A stretch of 64,000 nucleotides of DNA from an uncultured delta proteobacterium (GCA_963727445.1 CAVSGI010000013.1:288001-352000); one strand, 5' to 3'. Shown: positions 52,233 to 64,000, counted from the stretch's first letter. Numbers and translations are program-made. Notes: generated by a model from the sequence alone, not told the origin.

Positions 52233-53921
52233 ATGGCTTACTCCCTGACCATCGGGCTCCGCTATCTGCGCTCCAAGAAGCGATCGACGGTGTCCTTGAT
52301 CACCGTGATCGCCGTGGCCGGTGTCGCGCTCGGGGTGGGAGCGCTGCTCGCGGTGCTGAGCATCACCAGCGGTTTTCAGGACGCGTTTCGCGACAAGGTC
52401 CTGGGTGTCAACGCCCACGTCCTGGTGCTGAAGTACGGTCTCGACTTCGACGAGTACCGCGACGTCATCACCATGGCGGACGAGATGCCCGAGGTGGCCG
52501 GGGCCGCGCCCTTCGTCATCAACGAGATGATGTTGGCCAAGGGCGACCGCATCGGCGGCGTGCTGGTGAAGGGCGTGGACCCGGAGCTGATGCCGTCGGT
52601 GCTGGACCTGCCGAGTCAGATGGTGGCGGGTTCCCTCGACGGACTGCGGCGCCCCGACGCGCATCCGCCTCTGTCACCCGACGATCTCTCCGCCGGCGGC
52701 GATGCGATGGGCGAAGACCTCGACGACTACCTGCGCGGGCTCACCGGCGAGGGCGACGAGGAAGATGCGCCCGACGCGGGCGCGATGACCGAGGAGCAGA
52801 TGGAGGCGCTCCGGGATCGGATCGCGGAGACGGGCGGTGACGAGCCGCTGATCGTCGGCGACGAAGACGCGCCCGACGCGGCCGCGGAGTGGCAGCCCGT
52901 CTGGGAGACGGATCCCCAACTCGCGGGCGACGGCGAAGGCGACGAGATCGAGCCGCTCCCCGAGGTCGAGGTCCCCACCCTCGAGGAGATGCAGCAGGCG
53001 CTCTCCGAGCTGGACGAGGGCGAGGGGCTGCCCACGGACGACGCCGAGCGCGAGCTCTTCGAAGAGGAAGCCCGCGAGCGCGAGCAAGCCGAGGGTGTGG
53101 TCGATGCGCAGGACCTGCCCGGCGTGGTGGTCGGCAAGACGCTGGCCGCGAACCTCGGTCTCGAGATCGGCGACCGCGTGCGGGTCATCTCGCCCCTCGC
53201 CGGCCTCGACACGAGCCTCTGGGCGCCCAACGACCGCACGCCGCGCAGCCGCGAGTTCCGCGTCATCGGCGTCTTCGAAGCGGGCTTTCAGGAGTACGAC
53301 AGCCGCCTGATCTACGTGGACCTCTACGAGGCGCAGTCCTTCTTCGATCAGGGAGACACGGTCACCGGCGTCGAGATGCGCTTGAACGACATCGACGCGG
53401 CGCCCGAGATCGCACGCAAGATCGAACGCGAGCTCGGCGGCGGTCCCTTCCACACGATGGACTGGGAGGAGCTCAACCGAAACCTCTTCACCGCTCTCGA
53501 GATTCAGAAGGTGATGCTGAGCCTGGTCACCTCCGCGATCATGGTGGTGGCGGCGCTGGTGGTGATCGCGACGCTGATCATCCTGGTACTCGAAAAGAAG
53601 CGCGAGATCGCGATCCTCAAGGCGATGGGCGCGAAGGACTTCAGCGTCCTCGGCATCTTCATGGTGCAGGGTCTGGTGATCGGCGCCTTCGGTACGCTCA
53701 TCGGGCTCTTGTTGGGCGGCGGGGCCGTCGCCTATCTCGACCTCTACCAATTCCCGCTCGATCCGAAGGTGTATCTGATCGACCACCTCCCGGTGCGGAT
53801 CAGCTCGTGGGAGTTCGTGCTGACGACCGGTGTGGCCTTCGCCATCTGCCTTCTGGCGACGCTGATCCCGAGCTGGTGGGCGGCGCGCCTGTTGCCAGCC
53901 GACGGCGTCCGCTACGAGTAG
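52233..53921 (+). CDS. LolC/LolE-family ABC permease with a large acidic insertion
   Basis: IGLRYLRSKK..GVALGV..SGFQ; EKKREIAILKAMGA; VYLIDHLPV; C-terminal VRYE. Confidence 0.88.
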   Translation: MAYSLTIGLRYLRSKKRSTVSLITVIAVAGVALGVGALLAVLSITSGFQDAFRDKVLGVNAHVLVLKYGLDFDEYRDVITMADEMPEVAGAAPFVINEMMLAKGDRIGGVLVKGVDPELMPSVLDLPSQMVAGSLDGLRRPDAHPPLSPDDLSAGGDAMGEDLDDYLRGLTGEGDEEDAPDAGAMTEEQMEALRDRIAETGGDEPLIVGDEDAPDAAAEWQPVWETDPQLAGDGEGDEIEPLPEVEVPTLEEMQQALSELDEGEGLPTDDAERELFEEEAREREQAEGVVDAQDLPGVVVGKTLAANLGLEIGDRVRVISPLAGLDTSLWAPNDRTPRSREFRVIGVFEAGFQEYDSRLIYVDLYEAQSFFDQGDTVTGVEMRLNDIDAAPEIARKIERELGGGPFHTMDWEELNRNLFTALEIQKVMLSLVTSAIMVVAALVVIATLIILVLEKKREIAILKAMGAKDFSVLGIFMVQGLVIGAFGTLIGLLLGGGAVAYLDLYQFPLDPKVYLIDHLPVRISSWEFVLTTGVAFAICLLATLIPSWWAARLLPADGVRYE

Positions 53922-53963: not shown

Positions 53964-54305
53964 TTGAAGATCGTCATGTACGTCCTGGCCGTGTTGGTCG
54001 GCCTTCTCGGTTTGGTCTTCGTCGCGGGGAACCAGGGCGAGGTGCTGCGCATCGTGGTCGGCGCGGTGTTGATCGCCGCAGCGATCGCCATGGTGGTCGC
54101 GGCGCGCATGCGCCCGCAGGTCACACAGCGGAACATCGTCCAGCGCATCGACGTGGGCGGTGACGTCCGCCTCGAAGAGCTGAAGTGCCAGAAGTGCGGG
54201 GCGACGCTCTCGAAGGAGGCGGTGACGGTGCACGAGGGAGCTGTGATGGTCGCGTGCCCCTACTGCCAGGCCAGCTACCAGATGGAGGAGGCGCCGAAAT
54301 GGTGA
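53964..54305 (+). CDS. Small two-TM protein with C-terminal Zn ribbon
   Basis: Two hydrophobic helices; CQKC..CPYC; stop overlaps the next start. Confidence 0.75.
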   Translation: MKIVMYVLAVLVGLLGLVFVAGNQGEVLRIVVGAVLIAAAIAMVVAARMRPQVTQRNIVQRIDVGGDVRLEELKCQKCGATLSKEAVTVHEGAVMVACPYCQASYQMEEAPKW

Positions 54306-55897
54306 TGCTCTTTTCGAACGTGGCGCGCGCCATCCAGAAGGACGTGGGCGCCTTCTTCGGAGCGGTGCGCGGCGAAGACGAGGTCCCCATCCCGCGCGGG
54401 CTGAACACCTACCCGTTCACCGGAAATGGTGGGCAGACGCGGCTGCATCTCCGCGTTCAGGACGACGGAACCGGCCTGCTCTTTCGCGATGTCACCGACG
54501 TCATCCACCTGACCACCACCGCCACCGAGATGATCTGGATGGCCCTCGAGGGCTGGCCGCCGCGCCGGGCGCTCGGCGCGCTCTCGCGGCGCTACCGGGG
54601 CACGCGCGGGGACTTCGCGGCGGACTACGCGCGGATGCAGCGAGTGGTGCAGGTGTTGTCGACGCCCTCCGCCAGCTGTCACACCTGCGCCCTCGAGCTG
54701 CCGCAGGTGCCGCTCTTCAGCCAGCGCGCCCGCGCGCCGCACAAGGTCGACCTCGCGCTCACCTACGCCTGCAACAACCGCTGCCCGCACTGCTACAACG
54801 ACCCGGAGCGCTTCGACATGCGCGCGCTGCCGGTCGACGATTGGAAGCGCATCCTCGATCAGCTCGCGGAGGTCGGCGTCCCGCACGTGATCTTCACCGG
54901 CGGCGAAGCCACCGTCTACAAGGGCCTCGAAGAGCTCATCGCCCACGCCGACCAGGCGGGGATGATGACCGGGCTCAACTCCAACGGACGGCGCCTCCGC
55001 GATCGCGCGTACGTCGAACGGCTTCGCGACGCCGGCCTCGACCACGTGCAGATCACCCTCGAGAGCCACCACGCCGCGGTGCACGACGCCATGGTCGGCG
55101 CCCGCGCCTGGGAAGAATGCGTGGCCGGCGTGCGCGCCTGCGTCGAGACCGAGGGCCTCCACGTCATCACCAACACCACCATCACGCGCGTCAACGCCGC
55201 CGAGATCGGCGAGACGGTGGAGTTCCTGGGCGACCTGGGCCTGAGCACCTTCGCGATGAACGGGATGATCTACTCGGGCGGCGGCGACGCGAACCCCGAT
55301 GCCATCCCCCAGGACGCCCTGCCCTCGCTCCTGATCGAGGTCCGCGACACCGCCGAGGAGCGCGGGCTGCGGTTCCTCTGGTACACGGTCACCGAGTACT
55401 GCGAGATGAACCCGGTCGAGCTCGAGATCGGGGCCAAGCGCTGTAACGCAGGCGAGTACTCGATGTGCATCGAGCCGAACGGCGACGTGCTGCCCTGCCA
55501 GAGCTACTACATCTCCGCCGGGAACATGCTTCGAGATCCCTGGAGCGAGATCTGGCGCGGCGAGCTCTTCCGCTCCTTCCGCGACCGCGAGGACGATCCA
55601 GCGTGGGCGGGGCTCCCCGACAAGTGCCACACCTGCCCGGACCTGCCGCTCTGCGGCGGGGGCTGCCGCATCGAGCGCGAGTCTGCGGCGGGCGTGGCCC
55701 CGGGCGGCTGTCAGAGCTGCGCGAGCGGCGGACTCACGACGGGACGCGGGATCCGCTCGACAGGCGTCAGCGCCGCGAGCCACTGCACCTGCGGCGAAGG
55801 AGAGAGCGCCGGAGCCGGATGCGCGAGCGATGTGCACCGCGCACCGATGGGTCTCGTCACCCTGCGCATCCCGGAGCGGACGGAGGTCTCGCGATGA
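54299..55897 (+). CDS. Radical SAM/SPASM protein with N-terminal PqqD/RRE-like domain
   Basis: RBS GGAGGAG at 54284; CNNRCPHC, FTGGE, NSNG; SPASM CNAG..EPNGDVLPC..CHTCPDLPLCGGGC. Confidence 0.92.
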   Translation: MVMLFSNVARAIQKDVGAFFGAVRGEDEVPIPRGLNTYPFTGNGGQTRLHLRVQDDGTGLLFRDVTDVIHLTTTATEMIWMALEGWPPRRALGALSRRYRGTRGDFAADYARMQRVVQVLSTPSASCHTCALELPQVPLFSQRARAPHKVDLALTYACNNRCPHCYNDPERFDMRALPVDDWKRILDQLAEVGVPHVIFTGGEATVYKGLEELIAHADQAGMMTGLNSNGRRLRDRAYVERLRDAGLDHVQITLESHHAAVHDAMVGARAWEECVAGVRACVETEGLHVITNTTITRVNAAEIGETVEFLGDLGLSTFAMNGMIYSGGGDANPDAIPQDALPSLLIEVRDTAEERGLRFLWYTVTEYCEMNPVELEIGAKRCNAGEYSMCIEPNGDVLPCQSYYISAGNMLRDPWSEIWRGELFRSFRDREDDPAWAGLPDKCHTCPDLPLCGGGCRIERESAAGVAPGGCQSCASGGLTTGRGIRSTGVSAASHCTCGEGESAGAGCASDVHRAPMGLVTLRIPERTEVSR

Positions 55898-57126
55898 CCA
55901 GCCCCCTCACCCACTTCTCCCGCGAGCGCGACGGTCAGGTCGCGCGCTATCACCTGCGCGTCGATCCCGACGGCTCGGGGATCCTCCTCGCCAACGCTTC
56001 GGCCGCGCTTCGCCTCTCACAAACCGGCGTGATCATCGCCCGCGGGATCCTCGAAGGCGCGAGCCCCGGGCGCATCTCCAAGGACCTCGCGCGCAAGTTC
56101 GCGCACGTCGACCGATCGAAGGCGAGCCAGGACGTCGACCGCGTCGGCAAGGCGATCGACGACCTCGCCCGCCCGCGTGACGGGATCGCGCTGACCAGCC
56201 TCGACGACCCAGATGCCACGCTGCACCGGCGCGCGCTCTCGGCGCCGCTCTGCGCCGAGGTGGTCACGCCCTCGGCGGGTCGAGCGAAGGAGATCGTCCA
56301 CCGCCTCTGGGACATCGGCATTCCGCAGGTGCGCTTCGTGCTTCCCGTGGGCCACAACGCCGGCCATCTCGTTCACCTGGTAGAGGCGGCGGAGGACGTG
56401 GGGATGATCACCGGCGTGCGCGCGCGGGCGTCGGACCTGATGCCGGAGACCGTGGTCCGCGGCCTGGCCATGGCGGGGCTCGACCACCTCGACCTGCTCT
56501 GGAGCGGTGTCGACCCGCAGATGCACGAGGACCTCTTCGGCGAAGGGGACCTCGCGCATGCGGAGAGGCTCCTCGCGCTCTGTCACGACCTCGAGCTCTT
56601 CCCGATCGCCGTCATGCCGTTGCTCGGGGCGATCCTCGACGATCTCGACGACCTGGGTCGCGTCCTCGCGAAGCATCGCATCGAGGCGCTGGTGGCTTAT
56701 GCCATCACCGACGAGGACGGGCAGGGTCGCGCACTGTCGAGCATCGAGCTCCCACAGGTGGCGACCAGCCTCGAAGAGGTGGCCGAGCACGGCAACATCA
56801 ACCTCGTATGGGCGGCGCCGGAAGAGCGCGACCCGTCGATCACGCTGGTGGAGCAGGTCGCGGCCGGACCGCGCGCCGCGGGCGAGGCCTGCATCCGCAT
56901 CGAGGCCGACGGGCGGGTGATCGCGCCCAACGGGCCGGCGACGATGGCGGGCAACCTCTTCGACGATCCCTGGGAAAAGATCTGGCAGGCCCCGATCTTC
57001 CACCACTGGCGCACGTCGGTGGACGATCCGCCGCGGTGCACGATGTGCCCGGGGCTCGCCCTCTGCGCCGCCGGCTGCCCGAAAGACCGCGCGACCTGGG
57101 CCACCCTTTCTGGAGGTGAGAAGTGA
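55894..57126 (+). CDS. Degenerate radical-SAM-like paralog (RRE-like + TIM-like + partial SPASM; no CxxxCxxC)
   Basis: ATGA overlap; HLRVDPDGSGIL matches HLRVQDDGTGLL of the neighbour; ends CTMCPGLALCAAGCP. Confidence 0.8.
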   Translation: MTSPLTHFSRERDGQVARYHLRVDPDGSGILLANASAALRLSQTGVIIARGILEGASPGRISKDLARKFAHVDRSKASQDVDRVGKAIDDLARPRDGIALTSLDDPDATLHRRALSAPLCAEVVTPSAGRAKEIVHRLWDIGIPQVRFVLPVGHNAGHLVHLVEAAEDVGMITGVRARASDLMPETVVRGLAMAGLDHLDLLWSGVDPQMHEDLFGEGDLAHAERLLALCHDLELFPIAVMPLLGAILDDLDDLGRVLAKHRIEALVAYAITDEDGQGRALSSIELPQVATSLEEVAEHGNINLVWAAPEERDPSITLVEQVAAGPRAAGEACIRIEADGRVIAPNGPATMAGNLFDDPWEKIWQAPIFHHWRTSVDDPPRCTMCPGLALCAAGCPKDRATWATLSGGEK

Positions 57127-58991
57127 TGCGCCGCCTCTCGACTTGGGCCGCCCTCACGGCCGCGACGATCGTGCTCCTCTTCCCGGCGCTGGCGACGGCT
57201 CCTGCCGCTGCGCAGACCTATGCGTTCTCCGTCCCGCAGGTGACGATGGAGTGCAGGGTCAACACCGACGCCTCGGTGCGCATCCACTACATCATCGAGT
57301 TCGAGAACAGCTCCTACGGCTCGCCCATCGACGTGGTCGACGTGGGGCTTCCCCACGACGATTACCGAATCTCGAACATGCGGGCGTCCCTCGACGGCGT
57401 GGAGACGCACGCCATCGCACCCTCCACCTACATCGACACCGGCGTCGAAGTGCACATCGGCGCCGGGATCCCGGCCGGGGCCCGCGGCGTCTTCGAGTTC
57501 ACGACGACCATGCCGGATCTCGTATTCTCGGACACGACCGACGATGCGCTGGCGTCGATACGCATCACGCCCACCTGGTTCGATGGAGCCCTCGTCACCG
57601 GCGACACCGATCTGCGCATCGCCATCGAGCTGCCGCCGGGCGTGAACGCCGAAGAGGTCCTGAATCAGGGCACGCCGTTCTACAACAAGGCCGACCTCGA
57701 CGATCACGCGCTTGTCGGCTTCCGCTTCGAGCACACGCGCTTCACCGAGGCGCACATGGTCGGCATCTCCTTCCCGCGCCGAGTGATGAGCCGCGTGGTG
57801 GAGATCACCAAGTGGGACCTCCTCGTGAAGTGGTGGGAAGACAACCCGAAGGTCCGCGTCATCGCCGGCATCCTGATGCTGCTGGTGTCGCTCCTCTTCT
57901 TCATGCGCTTCACCGGCTTCACCGGCTGGTCGGTCTTCATCTTCCTCGCAGGCGTGGTGGGGGTGCTCTGCTACTTCGCGCCGTTGGTGCAGCTGGTTCT
58001 GATCCCGGTCATCCCGGTGGTCGGCGCGCTCCTCGAATGGCGCACGCAGCGGAGAAAACGGACGTACCTGCCGCCCATCGCCTCGGTGGAAGGCGGCGGG
58101 ATCAAGCGCGGGCTCACCGCGCCCGAGGCCGCGGTGCTCCTCGAGCTGCCCCTGGGCCGGGTGCTGACGCTGGTCGTCTTCGGGATGCTGCGGAAGCGCC
58201 TGTTGATCCAGCAGAACCTCAAGCCGCTCACCGTGAGCATCGTCCCTGCCATCGCCCAGGCCAAGAAGCACAAGGCGCGGCGGCGGGCGGCGGCTCAGGC
58301 CGGGCTGGTGATCCACGCCTATGAGCACGCCTTCCTCGACGCCATCGACGACAGCCGCGGCCTCTCGGTGAACGAGGTCGACTTCGGCGCGGCGATGAAG
58401 AAGCTCGTCGAGCACGTCGCGGAGCGCGTGCTCGGCTTCGACGTGGACCAGACGAAGAAGTACTACCGGTATCAGATCCAGCGCGCGTGGACCGAGGCCG
58501 AGGCCATCGGCGAGCTAGACATGCGCACCAAGAAGGTCGACGAGAAGCTCGAGTGGTTGCTCATGGACGACGACTACGACGACCGCTTCTCGAGTTGGGG
58601 GACGGGCGGCTACTGGTACCGGCCCACCTGGGGCTACGTCCACACGGGCGGCGGCGTCGATCTCGGCAGCGTCGCCGACGCAGCGGCGTCCGCCGGCGGG
58701 GGCGCCATCGACCACACGCAGACGAGCTTCGGCGACGTGGCGGCGGGCTTCGCCGGGTGGACCGAGCGCGTCACCGGCCAGCTCTCGAACGCCATCCGGC
58801 CGGGCGACGTGAACGCGGCGGCCGCCGGCGGCGTCATCGATCTCTCCGGCGCCGACAAGGTGACGGGCGAGGTCCTCGAAGCCTTCTTCTCCAACAGCGG
58901 CGGCGGTGGCGGAGGTGGCGGCGGCGGGGGCTGCGCGTGCGCCTGCGCCGGCTGCGCGTGCGCGTGCGCCTGTGCCGGCGGCGGCCGATGA
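57123..58991 (+). CDS. DUF2207-like membrane protein with C-terminal Gly10-(Cys-Ala)n tail
   Basis: Signal peptide; VNTDASVRIHYIIEFEN N-domain; three TM helices; LTAPEAAVLL; ends GGGGGGGGGGCACACAGCACACACAGGGR. Confidence 0.8.
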   Translation: MMRRLSTWAALTAATIVLLFPALATAPAAAQTYAFSVPQVTMECRVNTDASVRIHYIIEFENSSYGSPIDVVDVGLPHDDYRISNMRASLDGVETHAIAPSTYIDTGVEVHIGAGIPAGARGVFEFTTTMPDLVFSDTTDDALASIRITPTWFDGALVTGDTDLRIAIELPPGVNAEEVLNQGTPFYNKADLDDHALVGFRFEHTRFTEAHMVGISFPRRVMSRVVEITKWDLLVKWWEDNPKVRVIAGILMLLVSLLFFMRFTGFTGWSVFIFLAGVVGVLCYFAPLVQLVLIPVIPVVGALLEWRTQRRKRTYLPPIASVEGGGIKRGLTAPEAAVLLELPLGRVLTLVVFGMLRKRLLIQQNLKPLTVSIVPAIAQAKKHKARRRAAAQAGLVIHAYEHAFLDAIDDSRGLSVNEVDFGAAMKKLVEHVAERVLGFDVDQTKKYYRYQIQRAWTEAEAIGELDMRTKKVDEKLEWLLMDDDYDDRFSSWGTGGYWYRPTWGYVHTGGGVDLGSVADAAASAGGGAIDHTQTSFGDVAAGFAGWTERVTGQLSNAIRPGDVNAAAAGGVIDLSGADKVTGEVLEAFFSNSGGGGGGGGGGGCACACAGCACACACAGGGR

Positions 58992-59055
58992 CGCATTCGC
59001 GTCCACTTTGGGCCCCAGGCCCAAATTGAACACGAATGCCGCGATCCGATCACAC

Positions 59056-59814
59056 ATGGCCGATATGAGCGAAGGCGCGCCGCCCAGCATCCCGCCAGAG
59101 TCGGTCCTTCGCGCCCAGGACGCGCTGATCGCGCCGATGCGCTCGCGCATCCTGCGGCGCATCGGCATCGGCCACCGCGGGCCCGTCCTCGACCTCGGCG
59201 CGGGGCCGGGGGTGGTGAGCGCGGAGCTGTTGCGGCGGAGCCGCGGTCCGGTGGTCGCCCTCGATCGCGATCCCATCGTGAAGAAGGCGCCCGCCGACGA
59301 GCGCGTCGTCGCCGACGCGACCGCCCTGCCCTTCGCCTCGGGCCGCTTCGCGCTCGTCTACGCGCAGTTCGTCTTTCTCTGGAACGACGCGGCGGCGCGA
59401 CGCCGCATCGCCGAGGAGATCGCTCGGGTGCTCTCACCGGACGGCGTGGTGGTGATCGTCGAGCCGGACTATCACGCCGCCATCGAGCACCCCCCCACCA
59501 TCGCCATCGCCCCGACCGCCGCCGCCGCCATCGCACGCGCGGGTGGGGTGCCCGACGTCGCCCGGCGCCTGCCGGCGGAGCTCTGTGAGGCGGGCCTGAC
59601 GGTGCGCATCGAGCAGAGCCCGGAGCTCGTCCCGCCCAATCCCGCGCGCTTCGCCGCGCTCGAAGGATTGCCGCTCACCGCCGAGGAGCAGGCGCGCATC
59701 GCGCAGGCGAAGAACGCTGACGCCGCGCTTCGCCCCGACGCCCGCTTCGCTCACGTACCGCTCTTCTTCTTCACTGCCGAGTCTGGGGCCTCGGGTCGAC
59801 GACGCGGCCCATGA
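59056..59814 (+). CDS. Class I SAM-dependent methyltransferase
   Basis: VLDLGAGPG, ADATALPF, RVLSPDG..VEPD. Confidence 0.85.
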   Translation: MADMSEGAPPSIPPESVLRAQDALIAPMRSRILRRIGIGHRGPVLDLGAGPGVVSAELLRRSRGPVVALDRDPIVKKAPADERVVADATALPFASGRFALVYAQFVFLWNDAAARRRIAEEIARVLSPDGVVVIVEPDYHAAIEHPPTIAIAPTAAAAIARAGGVPDVARRLPAELCEAGLTVRIEQSPELVPPNPARFAALEGLPLTAEEQARIAQAKNADAALRPDARFAHVPLFFFTAESGASGRRRGP

Positions 59815-61132
59815 AGAGGATCGTCCCCGAGCTCGGCTCGCGGATGGCGAAGAGGAAGGGGCGGTCGGCGCGGATCTCGATCGGCTCGGCGGGTCGCCCG
59901 CCGCCAAAGCCCATCGTGACCGCGGTGGCCGCGGCCGCCTCGGTCCCCTCTTCGTCCACCTTCACGAACACCTGGTGGTACGCCTCGCTCACATAGAGGC
60001 GCTCGTCGGGGTCGGCGGGGCGCCCGATGCCGAAGAAGTCGGCTGCGCCGTCGTCGAACGCGAGACGCATGCCGAGCGCCTTCAGGGCTGTGGAGAGGGT
60101 CATGCGGGTCGACATCTCGAAGCGCGGCATCACCAGGCGCACCCGGTCCTGTGAGAGAAGCCCGACCCATCGCTCGAACTGATCACCCGAGAGCTGGCCT
60201 TCGATGGCTGGCAGGCCCGTGGCCGAGTCGGGGATGATCAGCGTCATCACCAGCTCGTCGCCGCGGTAGGGCAGCTCGACCACCGTCACGTCGCCGCGAT
60301 GCGCGTGCTTCAGGTTCTCGGTCTGCCGCATCAGCGGCACCTCGATGGTCGAGCCATCGGCGAGAGTGAAGCGCTCGTCGCGAGTGAGCGCTGAATCGAA
60401 GGGCTCGGCCCACGCGCCCAGGAAATAGACGGCGTTGACCAGCACCAGGCCGGTGTCGGCGGTGATCGAAGTCGGGGGCAACAGATCGGTGATCCGCTCG
60501 CGTGTCTGTTGGGCGACCCATTCGTTGATGTGCTCGCGCTGCTCGTTCGGCGCGCCGTGGAAGTCCACGCCTTCGAAGGGCGCGGCGTAGGTGGTGCGCG
60601 TCAGCGTGAGGTAGTCCTGCTCGAAGCGAGCGCTCTGCTCGCCGAAGAGGCGATCCACGACGCGCAGCTCGTAATCCTCGCGGTTCGGATCGTTCCAGCG
60701 CGCGAGCACGCGGCCCGCGGCTTCGTGCACCGCGTCGGCGTCCCCAACGAGGCCCATGGTGCGCGCCATCTCCGCTGCGGTCTCACCCCGGGCGCCGCCG
60801 AAGACCATCTCGAAGGCGAGGGTGATGGAGGCCGGCGAGATCGCGAGATTGCCGTCGGCTCCGCGCGCCTGCCCGTAGATCGCGAAGCCGAAGGCGTTGC
60901 TGGTGCGAGCGAAGGCCGAGGCCTGCTCCGCCGTGGGCGGCTCCTGCTCGCGCGGCTCGGGGTTCGAGAAGAACGACTCCGGCGCTTCGTCGTTGCCGGC
61001 GCCCTCGCTTTCGGCCTCGGCCGTCTCCGGCGCTTCGGTGCTGATCTGCGGCGCGGACGGCTGCGTGACGGGCCCGTTCGTCCCGCACTTGCAGGCGCAG
61101 AGCGCCATCAAGACCACGAAGAATCGCCGCAT
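59771..61132 (-). CDS. Serpin (probable lipoprotein)
   Basis: ISPASI, INEWVAQQT, LVNAVYFLGAW, hinge EEGTEAAAAT, ADRPFLFAI..ILFMGRV. Confidence 0.92.
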   Translation of the reverse strand: MRRFFVVLMALCACKCGTNGPVTQPSAPQISTEAPETAEAESEGAGNDEAPESFFSNPEPREQEPPTAEQASAFARTSNAFGFAIYGQARGADGNLAISPASITLAFEMVFGGARGETAAEMARTMGLVGDADAVHEAAGRVLARWNDPNREDYELRVVDRLFGEQSARFEQDYLTLTRTTYAAPFEGVDFHGAPNEQREHINEWVAQQTRERITDLLPPTSITADTGLVLVNAVYFLGAWAEPFDSALTRDERFTLADGSTIEVPLMRQTENLKHAHRGDVTVVELPYRGDELVMTLIIPDSATGLPAIEGQLSGDQFERWVGLLSQDRVRLVMPRFEMSTRMTLSTALKALGMRLAFDDGAADFFGIGRPADPDERLYVSEAYHQVFVKVDEEGTEAAAATAVTMGFGGGRPAEPIEIRADRPFLFAIREPSSGTILFMGRVVDPRPQTRQ

Positions 61133-61143
61133 CGTCCCTCCGT

Positions 61144-62505
61144 TCAACGACTGACGTCGAAGGCCCTGGACGTCGAGATCCGGCGGCAGAGCCCGGGGGT
61201 GAACTCGCACGAAGAGACGGCGGCGGTCAATGCTCCCGGCACCAGGATGGCGTCGCGCGTCTCGATCGGCAGCTCCGGGAAGAGGCCGCGGGCGCGAGCC
61301 GCGCCCCAGTACTGGACGTACCAGCGCGGCGCAGTGTCCACCGCGTAGGTGACGCGCTGGATGGTGTCGGCTGCGGTCGATGTCCAGCGCACGCGCTCCG
61401 TCAACGCGATCCCGTCGGCGGTCGCGACGTCCAGCGTCGGCGGCGAGAGGAATTCGGCGTCGATCGGCGCGCTGGGCGGCCCGTCCCAATCGAGGACGAC
61501 GCTCGACTGACCGCCGCCGTCCGACTCGAGCTGCAGCGTGAGGAAGGACGCTTCGCCCGCCGGCGGATCGACGAGGCCTAGCCGGGCGGTGACCACGCCG
61601 GTGGCTTCGGTGTAGGTGGTCTCGAGAGGGAAGCCGACGGTGGCGCCGATCTGTCCGCGCGGCGTGACCGTGCTGAGCGCGGCGAGTGGTAGCGCGCTGT
61701 CGAAGAACGGCGTGCCGCTCGGCACCACGTAGGCGATGGTCCGCTCCGCGAGCGGGACGTCGGTGGAGAAGTCGAGGACCAGGTCCGTCGTCTCGTCTGC
61801 CGCTGGCGTCTCGAGGAAGGTCGCGTCCACCATCCACTGTCGGCCGCGCGCGCCGAAGGTCGCAGGCGAGAGCGCCCAGGCCCAACCGATCAACGTGGTG
61901 GAGGGCTGAGGCGACATGCGGATGGTCCAGGGGAGCGTGAGAAAGCCGCGGAACTGGAGCGCGTCGCCGTCGAGTGGCTCGACGAAGAGCGTGGACAGGC
62001 CCGCCGGTGCATTCACCACGGTGCCGGAGAGAGAGATGGTGGCGACGCGCTCGAGGGCGATCACCATCTGGGCCTCCTCGGCGGTGACGGGCCAGCCGCG
62101 ATCCTCGTGATGACGGATCACCTCGCGGTCGAAACCGACGTAGGTGGTCGCGATGTAGTCGGGATGGAAGGCGGTGAGCACCAGCTCACCCGCGTCGATG
62201 TCGACCCCATCGAAGGTCACCGCACCCCTGCGATTGGTCGTCGCGGACAGGAGCCCATCCGGGGTGTCGAGGAAGACCTGCGCGTCTTCGATCGGCACGA
62301 GGTCGGCGACGGGGCTGCTCACCACCACCACCGTGAACCGAAGCGGCGCCTGGGCGTCGGCGTCTTCATCGGCGGAGGCGGCGTCCGAAGCGGGGGTGGT
62401 GTCGGCCGTCGCGTCGGTGAGCGCCCCGCCATCGTCGCCACATCCGACCGTCACCGCCGCGGCGGCGAGGAGCAGGCGAAGCAAGCTCTCGGTCGTGAGA
62501 ATCAC
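61144..62505 (-). CDS. Hypothetical lipoprotein
   Basis: TVGC lipobox; PIEDAQVFL..TTNRRG carboxypeptidase-regulatory-like segment. Confidence 0.65.
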   Translation of the reverse strand: MILTTESLLRLLLAAAAVTVGCGDDGGALTDATADTTPASDAASADEDADAQAPLRFTVVVVSSPVADLVPIEDAQVFLDTPDGLLSATTNRRGAVTFDGVDIDAGELVLTAFHPDYIATTYVGFDREVIRHHEDRGWPVTAEEAQMVIALERVATISLSGTVVNAPAGLSTLFVEPLDGDALQFRGFLTLPWTIRMSPQPSTTLIGWAWALSPATFGARGRQWMVDATFLETPAADETTDLVLDFSTDVPLAERTIAYVVPSGTPFFDSALPLAALSTVTPRGQIGATVGFPLETTYTEATGVVTARLGLVDPPAGEASFLTLQLESDGGGQSSVVLDWDGPPSAPIDAEFLSPPTLDVATADGIALTERVRWTSTAADTIQRVTYAVDTAPRWYVQYWGAARARGLFPELPIETRDAILVPGALTAAVSSCEFTPGLCRRISTSRAFDVSR

Positions 62506-63197
62506 GGGGTGCTGCGACAGAGCCCTTCGAGCTCACCACAGCCCACGCAGCAAGTTCCTTCGCAGCAGTGGCGATCGTTGCGGCACCAGAAGCCGCGGTC
62601 GTCGAGGGGCAGGCACATCGCCTGACAGGTCGGCGGCAGGAACTCGCCGGTCATGGCATCGGCCGCGCCGAAACAGAGACCCGACGCGCATTGCCGGTCG
62701 TCGAAGCAGGGCTCACCCACGGCGAGGAGGGTGCCGGGTCCGCCGTCCCCGGCGTCTCCAGCGTCACCCGCGTCACCCGGGCCCGGTCCGCCGTCCAAGG
62801 CTCCGTCGAGGCCACCATCGACGCCACCGTCATCCGGCCCGGCGTCGGCGCCTCCGCACCAGCTGTTCTGATCGATGGTCCCAGCCGGGCACTCGCAGCA
62901 CCCCACGTAGAACGGCTCCTCGTCGCAGGCGTAGGCGCAGAGAGACTCGATGTCGCAGGGCGAGTCGTCGCAAGAGCCGGCGTCGCCGGGGAGCGGACCC
63001 CCGTCGCTGCAGAGGCTCACGTCGAAGGTCCCCGCGGGGCACGGCGCGCACGAGGTCGTTCCCGTACCCGTCCCCGTGCAGGACGAGACGCAGAGCACGA
63101 CGCTGGAGCACGGGCCCGGGCCCACCACGGTCGGCGGCGGGTCGCCGCAGCTGCAATCCCCCAGCGTGACCAGCAGGACGATGAGCAGGATGATCAC
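62502..63197 (-). CDS. Cys-rich secreted protein or lipoprotein
   Basis: Hydrophobic N-terminus, many Cys, DAG/DGG repeats; GTGA coupling to the next gene. Confidence 0.65.
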   Translation of the reverse strand: MIILLIVLLVTLGDCSCGDPPPTVVGPGPCSSVVLCVSSCTGTGTGTTSCAPCPAGTFDVSLCSDGGPLPGDAGSCDDSPCDIESLCAYACDEEPFYVGCCECPAGTIDQNSWCGGADAGPDDGGVDGGLDGALDGGPGPGDAGDAGDAGDGGPGTLLAVGEPCFDDRQCASGLCFGAADAMTGEFLPPTCQAMCLPLDDRGFWCRNDRHCCEGTCCVGCGELEGLCRSTP

Positions 63198-63320: not shown

Positions 63321-63395
<75 letters not shown>

Positions 63396-64000
63396 CGAGA
63401 CTTCGCTTAGAGGGGTAGTGATTTCGGCTGGTTGGCGATTCGTCGACCGGCCGAAGTCGTATCTGGGATTTGAGCGTCGAGCCACGTTGACTATCCGGAT
63501 GACTATTTCGTCCGGGGACCGTGCGCCGAGGCGGGGAAGAGCAGCGCCGCGACTTGGTCGCCCGCCTGCCTCGCCTCGTCCGGGAGCAGCGTCGAGTAAT
63601 GCTCCCGCATCCTGTCGGTTGCGTGCCCCACGAGGGACTTCGCGACCACTGGATCCACCTTCGCGCGCCTCAGAAGGTCGGTCATCGACCGCCTGAGCCC
63701 GTGCGAGGTGATGCGCTGCGTGATGCCCGCGCGAGCGCGGGCGGCGGCGAGCGCATCCGAGATACGCGCCGAGCCGAGGGGCGTCCCGACCCTGGATGGG
63801 AACATCAGCCCGCTCGACAAGCCGGGATGCTGCTCGCGAACGAGCCGCGCCCGATGCTCGCGGAGGAGCTCGAGCAGCACGCCCGGCACGCCGACCCATC
63901 GCGCCTTACCCGACTTCGTCGACGGCACGAGCTCGCCCTTCACCACCTTGCGGCGGACCCAGAGCACCCGCTCCTCCTCGACGAGGTCCGCGAACATCAA
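63396..64000. mobile_element. Left end of a tRNA-Gly-integrated element (prophage, ICE or island)
   Basis: Integrase ends about 107 nt downstream of the tRNA CCA. Confidence 0.65.
63503..64000 (-). CDS. Tyrosine recombinase/integrase (C-terminal part)
   Basis: TKSG, HGLRR, LVGH, HY catalytic residues; converges on the tRNA 3' end. Confidence 0.9.
   Translation of the reverse strand: MMFADLVEEERVLWVRRKVVKGELVPSTKSGKARWVGVPGVLLELLREHRARLVREQHPGLSSGLMFPSRVGTPLGSARISDALAAARARAGITQRITSHGLRRSMTDLLRRAKVDPVVAKSLVGHATDRMREHYSTLLPDEARQAGDQVAALLFPASAHGPRTK

Follow-up and report, generated by a model that had tools for sequence, protein, structure and literature searches.

A gene cassette that points to chemical modification of a Cys-Ala tail on a bacterial membrane protein

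Can the radical chemistry that matures small peptides also be applied to a whole integral membrane protein? To our knowledge, radical S-adenosylmethionine (SAM) enzymes with a SPASM domain are known as maturases almost only as makers of small secreted peptides, with QhpC and (since 2026) CrpA as the protein substrates. The question is raised by a cassette of five genes at positions 53964-59814 of a 64,000-nucleotide stretch of DNA from an uncultured delta proteobacterium (GCA_963727445.1, CAVSGI010000013.1:288001-352000), here called the window. The cassette joins a radical SAM/SPASM enzyme to a membrane protein that ends in a Cys-Ala repeat (hereafter the tail protein) and points to an undescribed chemical modification of that whole protein. 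A preliminary description of this DNA had proposed that chemistry of the kind found in peptides that are made by ribosomes and modified after translation (RiPPs) acts on the tail. Gene linkage, conservation and co-occurrence agree with this proposal, but the substrate role of the tail is still one that we infer. The tail-protein family, well conserved as a whole but with no annotation and no cultured model organism, appears to be such a substrate.

Linkage and conservation of the Cys-Ala tail

Five co-oriented genes on the + strand fill 53964-59814, as judged from the open reading frame (ORF) listing and inspection of the window sequence. In order, they encode a 113-residue zinc-ribbon protein with two transmembrane (TM) helices (53964-54305), a 532-residue radical SAM/SPASM enzyme with a predicted RiPP recognition element (RRE; 54299-55897), a 410-residue pseudo-radical SAM paralog of that enzyme (55894-57126), the 622-residue tail protein (57123-58991) and a 252-residue class I SAM-dependent methyltransferase (59056-59814). 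The first four genes overlap by 7, 4 and 4 nt: the ATG of the radical SAM gene overlaps the TGG-TGA end of the zinc-ribbon gene, the paralog starts in an ATGA overlap with the radical SAM gene, and the tail protein starts in a GTGA overlap with the paralog gene. The methyltransferase gene begins 64 nt 3′ of the tail-protein gene. This arrangement of four coupled genes with a methyltransferase downstream is as the preliminary description had given it. The GC content of the window is ∼70%; since all five products have strong homologs elsewhere, these are real genes rather than chance ORFs in DNA of 70% GC.

The tail protein has the C-terminus GGGGGGGGGGG-CACACAGCACACACAGGGR, with seven Cys, in which a linker of 11 Gly precedes CACACAGCACACACAGGGR (58932-58988), the proposed modification site. 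These last 19 residues form a near-invariant Cys-Ala repeat, a target that is kept nearly letter for letter across phyla. Relatives were sought in 401 genomes of the window's phylum, and a scan of one genome per species gave at least 235 stretches that encode relatives, of which the best 77 loci were examined. These came from metagenome-assembled genomes (MAGs) labelled as Anaerolineales and other Chloroflexota, Armatimonadota, Planctomycetota, Deltaproteobacteria, Zipacnadia, Hydrogenedentota, Elusimicrobiota, Nitrospiraceae and Cloacimonadota, and they fall into two layouts. In type A (44 loci, including the window's own arrangement) the order is zinc ribbon, radical SAM, paralog, tail protein and methyltransferase, and in type B (33 loci, mostly Chloroflexota) it is zinc ribbon, tail protein, radical SAM, paralog and methyltransferase. 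Type-A tails read C(AC)1-2AG-CACACACAGGGR and type-B tails C(AC)2-4AG-CACACAGGGR. The C-terminus CAGCACACACAGGG followed by R (118 sequences) or V (two) was present in 120/120 homologs listed.

At the 77 loci, 80 of 82 membrane-protein ORFs carried the tail, including both copies of tandem duplicates; the two without it (L057 and L088) appear truncated or frameshifted. More widely, the family has 1002 representatives (at 50% identity) that match at E ≤ 1e-3. Among the best 150 of these, 52 have a type-A tail, 59 a type-B tail and 15 a variant Cys-Ala tail (AS, VS or DS replacing AG, or a single block), and the 24 that end elsewhere are mostly fragments. Tandem duplication of the tail-protein gene was seen in L017, L018, L027, L035 and L063, each copy keeping the full tail; at the four type-A loci of this set the upstream copy, ∼536-547 aa when counted from where the match begins, is the shorter one and has no DLSGxDKVTG, which like FAGWxE is a conserved motif of the family. 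Frameshifted or split genes occur in some MAGs (the tail gene in L088 and L057, the radical SAM gene in L063, L079 and L088) and could be assembly errors or decay.

The tail is conserved as a peptide. Eighty-seven tails are encoded by 86 distinct DNA versions of the last 48 nt, every synonymous codon is used, and the GC content of the loci ranges from 36 to 76%; therefore, selection acts on the tail peptide. A degenerate tail-coding pattern was found in 7/401 genomes of the phylum, once in each and always at the 3′ end of a tail-protein gene, and the reversed pattern, used as a control in the same 401 genomes, gave no match.

The tail protein and the radical SAM enzyme also occur together. The tail protein was present in 7/401 phylum genomes, and the gene order of the window is kept in the six others (four complete, two cut by contig ends). 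An ortholog of the enzyme (E ≤ 1e-60) was found in 6/401 genomes, all six of them among the seven with a tail protein; in the seventh, the contig ends inside the radical SAM gene. Across the 77 loci, the active enzyme adjoins the tail protein in 33/44 type-A and 27/33 type-B loci, the zinc-ribbon protein in 31/44 and 32/33, the second paralog in 33/44 and 23/33, and the methyltransferase in 30/44 and 18/33, respectively, and most cases of a missing neighbour lie at contig ends. Six loci have adequate flanking sequence yet no adjacent radical SAM gene (L034, L038, L041, L045, L048 and L089). In all five genomes tested (those of L034, L038, L041, L048 and L053), a radical SAM protein of 50-62% identity is encoded elsewhere, one of these copies having an internal stop and one being partial. 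Thus the tie between tail and enzyme that the preliminary description had put forward holds: all complete family members are tailed, the pattern occurs nowhere else in the 401 genomes, and the enzyme co-occurs at the locus or in the genome. The same description had counted the methyltransferase and the second paralog as parts of the system. They are frequent neighbours, but both are missing at some loci and are facultative, not essential to the core. Because of these absences, we take the zinc-ribbon protein, the enzyme and the tail protein as the core.

The tail protein, the enzyme and their partners

No Pfam family matched the 622-residue tail protein, no NCBIfam family matched it at E ≤ 0.01, and its profile found no solved structure by sequence. 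An AlphaFold2 model (mean pLDDT 77.8) has a signal peptide, strands over residues 34-217 that form a beta-sandwich, helices over 241-313 that make three TM helices, and a folded winged-helix/helical region at 332-493. Residues 506-621 have pLDDT < 50, so that the C-terminal ∼115 residues are predicted to be disordered; this stretch runs from a conserved motif through the Gly linker to the tail. In structure, the N-terminal domain is like OST1/ribophorin I (Z 14.9 over 179 aligned residues) and like the M1 aminopeptidase N-domain. Likeness of the cytoplasmic domain to GOLPH3/Vps74 (Z 8.1 and 7.1) was too weak for a helical domain and was rejected. On this model, the beta-sandwich would be periplasmic, the chain would cross the membrane three times, and the C-terminal folded helical domain would be cytoplasmic. 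Since the N-domain is exported, three TM helices follow and an RRKR stretch lies after the last of them, the Cys-Ala tail should be cytoplasmic, which is where the radical SAM enzyme works.

The enzyme carries the motifs and predicted fold of RRE-dependent RiPP maturases. Pfam recognises both its Radical_SAM (E 3.9e-26) and SPASM (E 1.6e-12) domains. The CxxxCxxC motif, the binding site of the SAM-cleaving [4Fe-4S] cluster, reads CNNRCPHC (residues 158-165; 54770-54793, +), and in an alignment of 32 sequences C158, C162 and C165 are invariant, as are C368, C382, C390, C400, C443, C446, C452 and C456 of the SPASM region, a Cys set for two auxiliary clusters. The AlphaFold2 model (pTM 0.82) places a domain at residues 34-121 ahead of the barrel, with strands at 34-71 followed by three helices at 73-121 (pLDDT ∼90), which is predicted to be an RRE (a PqqD-like winged helix). 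Sequence-level matches to such a domain are weak and come from the paralog, as given below. The best Foldseek matches of the model are the RRE-bearing RiPP maturases SkfB (E 4e-17), SuiB and CteB, aligned over 390-480 columns, then PqqE; by sequence, the nearest solved structures are PqqE 6c8v (E 1.3e-20) and SkfB 6efn (E 1e-18). Non-peptide enzymes (MoaA, BlsE and DesII) are also among the structural relatives. In NCBIfam, 64 families matched below threshold, the best being PqqE TIGR02109 (125.8 bits against a cut-off of 381), and haem-pathway AhbC, AhbD and NirJ scored similarly; the best 25 of the 64, which cover named radical SAM/SPASM families (PqqE, AhbD, GeoRSP, StsB, SkfB, AlbA and others), were all far under their cut-offs.

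The second radical SAM-like protein is a dead paralog. It shares 26% identity with the neighbouring enzyme over residues 132-406 (E 3.4e-19), and the N-domains match as well (E 1.9e-4). However, CxxxCxxC was found neither in the window paralog nor in any of 55 orthologs (33 type A, 22 type B), whereas it is present in 59 orthologous radical SAM ORFs of the 77 loci, a count that leaves out three C-terminal pieces of split radical SAM genes. The absence of this motif throughout identifies the second paralog as a pseudo-enzyme. The window paralog retains an RRE-like N-domain and a CX2CX5CX3C remnant of the SPASM domain, which is kept in 29/33 type-A paralogs and lost in type B. Its Pfam matches are under the cut-off (SPASM E 0.0039, PqqD E 0.008) and its NCBIfam matches are weak, namely the pseudo-SAM/SPASM family TIGR04347 (2.9e-6) and the lasso PqqD family (8.9e-5). 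With TIGR04347 (26.8 bits against a cut-off of 525), the only likeness is that of a radical SAM paralog without cluster cysteines. Of the pair of radical SAM/SPASM proteins in the preliminary description, the first stands as an enzyme with the predicted build of RRE, radical SAM and SPASM domains (Pfam, AlphaFold2 and Foldseek), but the second does not.

Two natural fusions connect this paralog to the tail protein. In L039/P0121 (995 aa; in frame at L039:6807-9794) and P0246 (948 aa), the paralog minus its SPASM end is joined to the N-terminus of the tail protein. The two are only 40% identical to each other and differ at the junction, and the N-terminal part of P0246 is 38% identical to the window paralog. 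With the former signal peptide serving as a TM helix after a cytoplasmic domain, such a protein would fit the topology predicted for the tail protein. In view of these fusions, we read the paralog as a one-to-one partner that works on the tail protein or together with it. A search for longer forms of the tail protein (≥1090 aa) found none, which is weak evidence; both fusions fall under that length. A predicted complex of enzyme residues 1-470, the pseudo-enzyme and tail-protein residues 515-621 gave ipSAE values of 0.02 and 0.02 against a mark of 0.32, in a prediction made without control runs, and speaks neither for binding nor against it.

The remaining two proteins are less distinctive. 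The zinc-ribbon protein has two TM helices, then CxxC...CxxC and an invariant C-terminal EExPKW motif; C75, C78, C98, C101, E108, E109 and W113 are invariant among 25 aligned sequences, and matches to Pfam and NCBIfam zinc ribbons are weak. The methyltransferase is a generic class I enzyme (Pfam Methyltransf_11, E 1.3e-12) that matched no solved structure by sequence and reached 42.9 bits against a cut-off of 155 with the NCBIfam DVU_1556-family methyltransferase. That family presumably neighbours a C_GCAxxG_C_C gene in Desulfovibrio.

Proposed maturation of the tail and competing explanations

We propose, with a probability of roughly 0.6, that the enzyme modifies the cytoplasmic tail in place and that the genes form a cassette, complete in itself, that matures one integral membrane protein. 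The RRE-radical SAM/SPASM enzyme would bind the C-terminal region of the tail protein as a RiPP maturase binds leader and core, and 5′-deoxyadenosyl radical chemistry would then act on the Cys-Ala repeat. The outcome would most likely be thioether crosslinks from Cys to carbon, with epimerisation or other modification of Cys or Ala as alternatives. Thioethers lead because the cysteines are invariant and close relatives of the enzyme make them. Even so, we hold this part of the proposal at somewhat less than even odds, since C-C and Lys-Trp links are also among the products of relatives, and there are radical SAM epimerases. The dead paralog, with its retained RRE-like domain and its occasional fusion to the substrate, is probably a stoichiometric scaffold or chaperone that keeps the tail protein in place for the enzyme, and the zinc-ribbon protein with its two TM helices probably brings the complex to the membrane or arranges it there. 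At loci that have one, the methyltransferase may add a further methyl group. As the cassette has no conserved protease or exporter, the modified product would most likely stay on the membrane protein, and it could be a rigid, metal-binding or redox-active appendage.

Several points weigh against this proposal. The assignment of the tail as the substrate is drawn from gene linkage and conservation. The nearest relatives of the enzyme perform differing chemistries (C-C, Lys-Trp and thioether), so that the reaction cannot be read from the fold. In the first tail block the Cys count ranges from 1 to 5, which is a poor fit to fixed nested crosslinks and favours a repeated local reaction over a fixed nested hairpin. 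The pseudo-enzyme is absent from four loci with adequate flanks (L056 and L058-L060) and the methyltransferase from about a third of all loci. The search for small ORFs used a floor of 30 aa and BLASTP, so that a very short or fast-evolving precursor would escape it. All relatives are MAGs, and the genome of the window is 85.6% complete. Finally, the invariance of the tail could reflect metal or Fe-S binding, Cys-X-Cys runs being typical metal ligands.

This last point leads to the strongest competitor, which we nevertheless consider unlikely: that the tail is itself a cofactor or metal site (metal or Fe-S, metallothionein-like, or an electron or sulfur relay) and that the enzyme has another target at the membrane. 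A flexible Gly linker bearing Cys-X-Cys runs would suit metal thiolate clusters such as those of metallothioneins, and since the tail protein has folded domains on both the periplasmic and the cytoplasmic side, it may be more than a precursor. The difference in Cys number between relatives sits well with such a site, and the authors of the CrpA study suspect metal binding for their product, according to the article text (PMC13692751). However, pure metal ligation needs no strict conservation of the tail Ala, Gly and terminal GGGR, which are as invariant as the Cys. Moreover, the enzyme has an RRE-like domain and a peptide-maturase fold, and no other candidate substrate gene is conserved.

If the tail is instead the core of a RiPP that is set free, the membrane protein would be a giant leader or scaffold, from which a protease with its gene elsewhere cuts a peptide of ∼19 residues at the Gly linker. 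The order of conserved region, poly-Gly and invariant core does resemble leader, double-glycine site and core, and other RiPP classes, borosins among them, have large precursor proteins with a C-terminal core. Yet the ∼500-residue remainder of the tail protein is 42-57% identical across phyla, beyond what a disposable leader needs, and among proteases and exporters only a signal peptidase S26 recurs, in seven closely related type-B loci. We regard release as improbable.

The preliminary description had seen no small precursor ORF. The wider search agrees: when 7242 leftover ORFs of at least 30 aa from 84 loci were clustered, no family occurred in more than 16 loci. The widest + strand families were PAS-like (13 loci), DSP-type phosphatase (12), signal peptidase S26 (7) and C_GCAxxG_C_C (6), all confined to related type-B genomes. 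Short tail-bearing proteins (166 short matches) were considered as separate precursors and rejected, since the 10 inspected, most of them on contigs of a few kb, had the look of pieces or split genes of the full-length family. Related Chloroflexota type-B loci (L061-L093) do have extra genes inside or beside the cassette, for example at L086:2597-3109, L070:8224-9189, L081:12953-14161 and L069:14927-15601, and their C_GCAxxG_C_C protein is a putative redox protein.

Against this background, a true substrate made elsewhere (an undetected short peptide or a non-peptide molecule), with the tail protein as receptor, anchor or regulator of the complex, is about as improbable as peptide release. The size floor and the use of BLASTP in the ORF search leave space for it, and the close structural relatives named above include the non-peptide MoaA, BlsE and DesII, with AhbC, AhbD and NirJ at similar scores. 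On the other hand, the cassette genes of the window overlap or lie 64 nt apart, with no room for another + strand ORF between them, the RRE-like domain argues for a peptide substrate, and the strict two-way co-occurrence of enzyme and tail would be left unexplained. The weakest explanation, that the Cys-Ala run is a functionless low-complexity by-product of a GC-rich (TGCGCN)n repeat, has in its favour the base composition of the window and the short-period repeat in the tail DNA, and is already refuted by the range of GC contents, DNA versions and codons that encode the tail, by its position, always in frame at the C-terminus, and by the lack of other matches in 401 genomes.

Modification of the tail in place remains our preferred reading, and it allows a bolder, tentative extension that we think rather less likely than not to hold in full. 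In this extension, the cassette would be the first case in which an integral membrane protein undergoes RiPP-type radical maturation, with the dead paralog as a chaperone subunit that holds the enzyme on its substrate. The tail would be turned into an appendage that is covalently laddered or stereo-inverted and serves as a protein-derived cofactor or metal site, linking the periplasmic beta-sandwich to the cytoplasm; the system is seen in at least eight bacterial phylum-level groups. The cassette could reveal a new post-translational modification and a substrate-chaperone role for pseudo-radical-SAM proteins, and could give a function to part of a large and obscure group, membrane proteins with Gly/Cys-rich tails.

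Related systems and surrounding genes

No Pfam or NCBIfam model describes the cassette system, and a literature search of article texts that included the tail string CACAGCAC found no description of the cassette or of the Cys-Ala tail family. The nearest precedents are CrpC/CrpA, the closest in print, and QhpD. In Methanococcus voltae (2026), the RRE-radical SAM/SPASM enzyme CrpC installs ranthionine thioethers on CrpA, a 28.8-kDa Cys-rich archaeal protein, as the article text reports (PMC13692751). As in our cassette, the enzyme gene lies beside that of a large Cys-rich protein, RiPP-type chemistry is applied to a protein at its C-terminal repeats, and there is a paralogous helper, CrpB, which according to the same text raises the extent of modification (PMC13692751). 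In contrast, CrpA is described as having ten 17-residue C-X-X-Q/D repeats, without mention of TM segments in that description (PMC13692751), whereas the protein here is a 622-residue integral membrane protein with a single 19-residue tail. The partners also differ, being a dead radical SAM paralog, a zinc-ribbon membrane protein and a methyltransferase, and the CrpC family TIGR04463 is not among the best 25 of the 64 NCBIfam matches to the window enzyme.

QhpD, a radical SAM/SPASM enzyme, is similarly reported to make Cys thioether crosslinks in a subunit, QhpC, that stays in the mature protein, as cited in the text of PMC13692751. Compared by description only, QhpC is unlike the tail protein in being a small soluble periplasmic subunit of quinohemoprotein amine dehydrogenase, and that system has no Cys-Ala repeat, membrane protein or dead paralog. 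SkfB, AlbA, CteB (SCIFF), SuiB and PqqE share domain build and predicted fold with the window enzyme, and a Cys-rich target, but act on short, separately encoded precursor peptides, of which none was found at the cassette.

The membrane proteins of TIGR04222 offer a parallel on the substrate side. They have been proposed as substrates of MNIO (DUF692) enzymes (PMC12452194, Microb Genom 2025), and in the article text they resemble the tail protein as integral membrane proteins whose extracytoplasmic domains are large and whose C-terminal tails are unstructured and rich in Gly, Ser and Cys, for which in-place modification by an adjacent RiPP-type enzyme is proposed (PMC12452194). Unlike the cassette, that system uses an oxygen-dependent MNIO, its tails are predicted to be periplasmic and are variable, and the enzyme association is looser, again as that text describes it (PMC12452194). 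The tail protein gave no TIGR04222 match, and neither Pfam nor NCBIfam found an MNIO (DUF692) gene among the cassette genes.

DUF2207/YciQ-like proteins share with the tail protein a signal peptide, a beta-sandwich, TM helices, a cytoplasmic domain and a Gly-rich end, and the two may be remotely akin. The leads are weak: PF09972 matched 2/31 family members (best E 0.055), and a feature match in the ESM Atlas to a DUF2207_C cluster scored 0.90. At cut-off, the DUF2207 Pfam models (PF09972/PF20990) did not match, and PF20990 was found in 0/21 related genomes, including that of the window. DUF2207 is not known to have an invariant Cys-Ala tail or radical SAM linkage. An anti-phage defence role was rejected, as PADLOC gave domain-level matches only (the radical SAM core to pVip, 58.7 bits over 150 residues; the methyltransferase to mad2, 46.4 bits) and none for the zinc-ribbon protein, pseudo-enzyme or tail protein.

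A promoter and terminator scan of the window gave nothing informative. A search of sequencing runs listed no RNA run, and three DNA metagenome runs contained small shares of the query words. Upstream, 42 nt before the cassette, lies a gene for a LolC/E-like lipoprotein-release permease (52233-53921, +). Its 562 residues compare with ∼411 profile positions, and the match is split in two, implying a long acidic insertion in the periplasmic domain at roughly residues 130-295. We rejected this LolE-like gene as an operon member because it lies beside the cassette in no locus elsewhere. Downstream and convergent to the methyltransferase gene is a serpin gene (59771-61150, -; Pfam Serpin E 1.4e-106), the end of whose ORF overlaps the methyltransferase 3′ end by ∼44 nt; it does not travel with the cassette genes at other loci. 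Two adjoining ORFs follow, both without a Pfam match: 61144-62505 (-) encodes a 453-residue protein that is secreted in appearance, and 62502-63197 (-) a 231-residue protein that is rich in Cys, Gly and Asp and has a hydrophobic segment at its N-terminus. Beyond them, a tRNA-Gly(GCC) gene (63321-63395, +) is followed by a phage-type integrase gene (63503-64000, -) that runs off the window end, and an integrated element may start near this pair (63321-64000).

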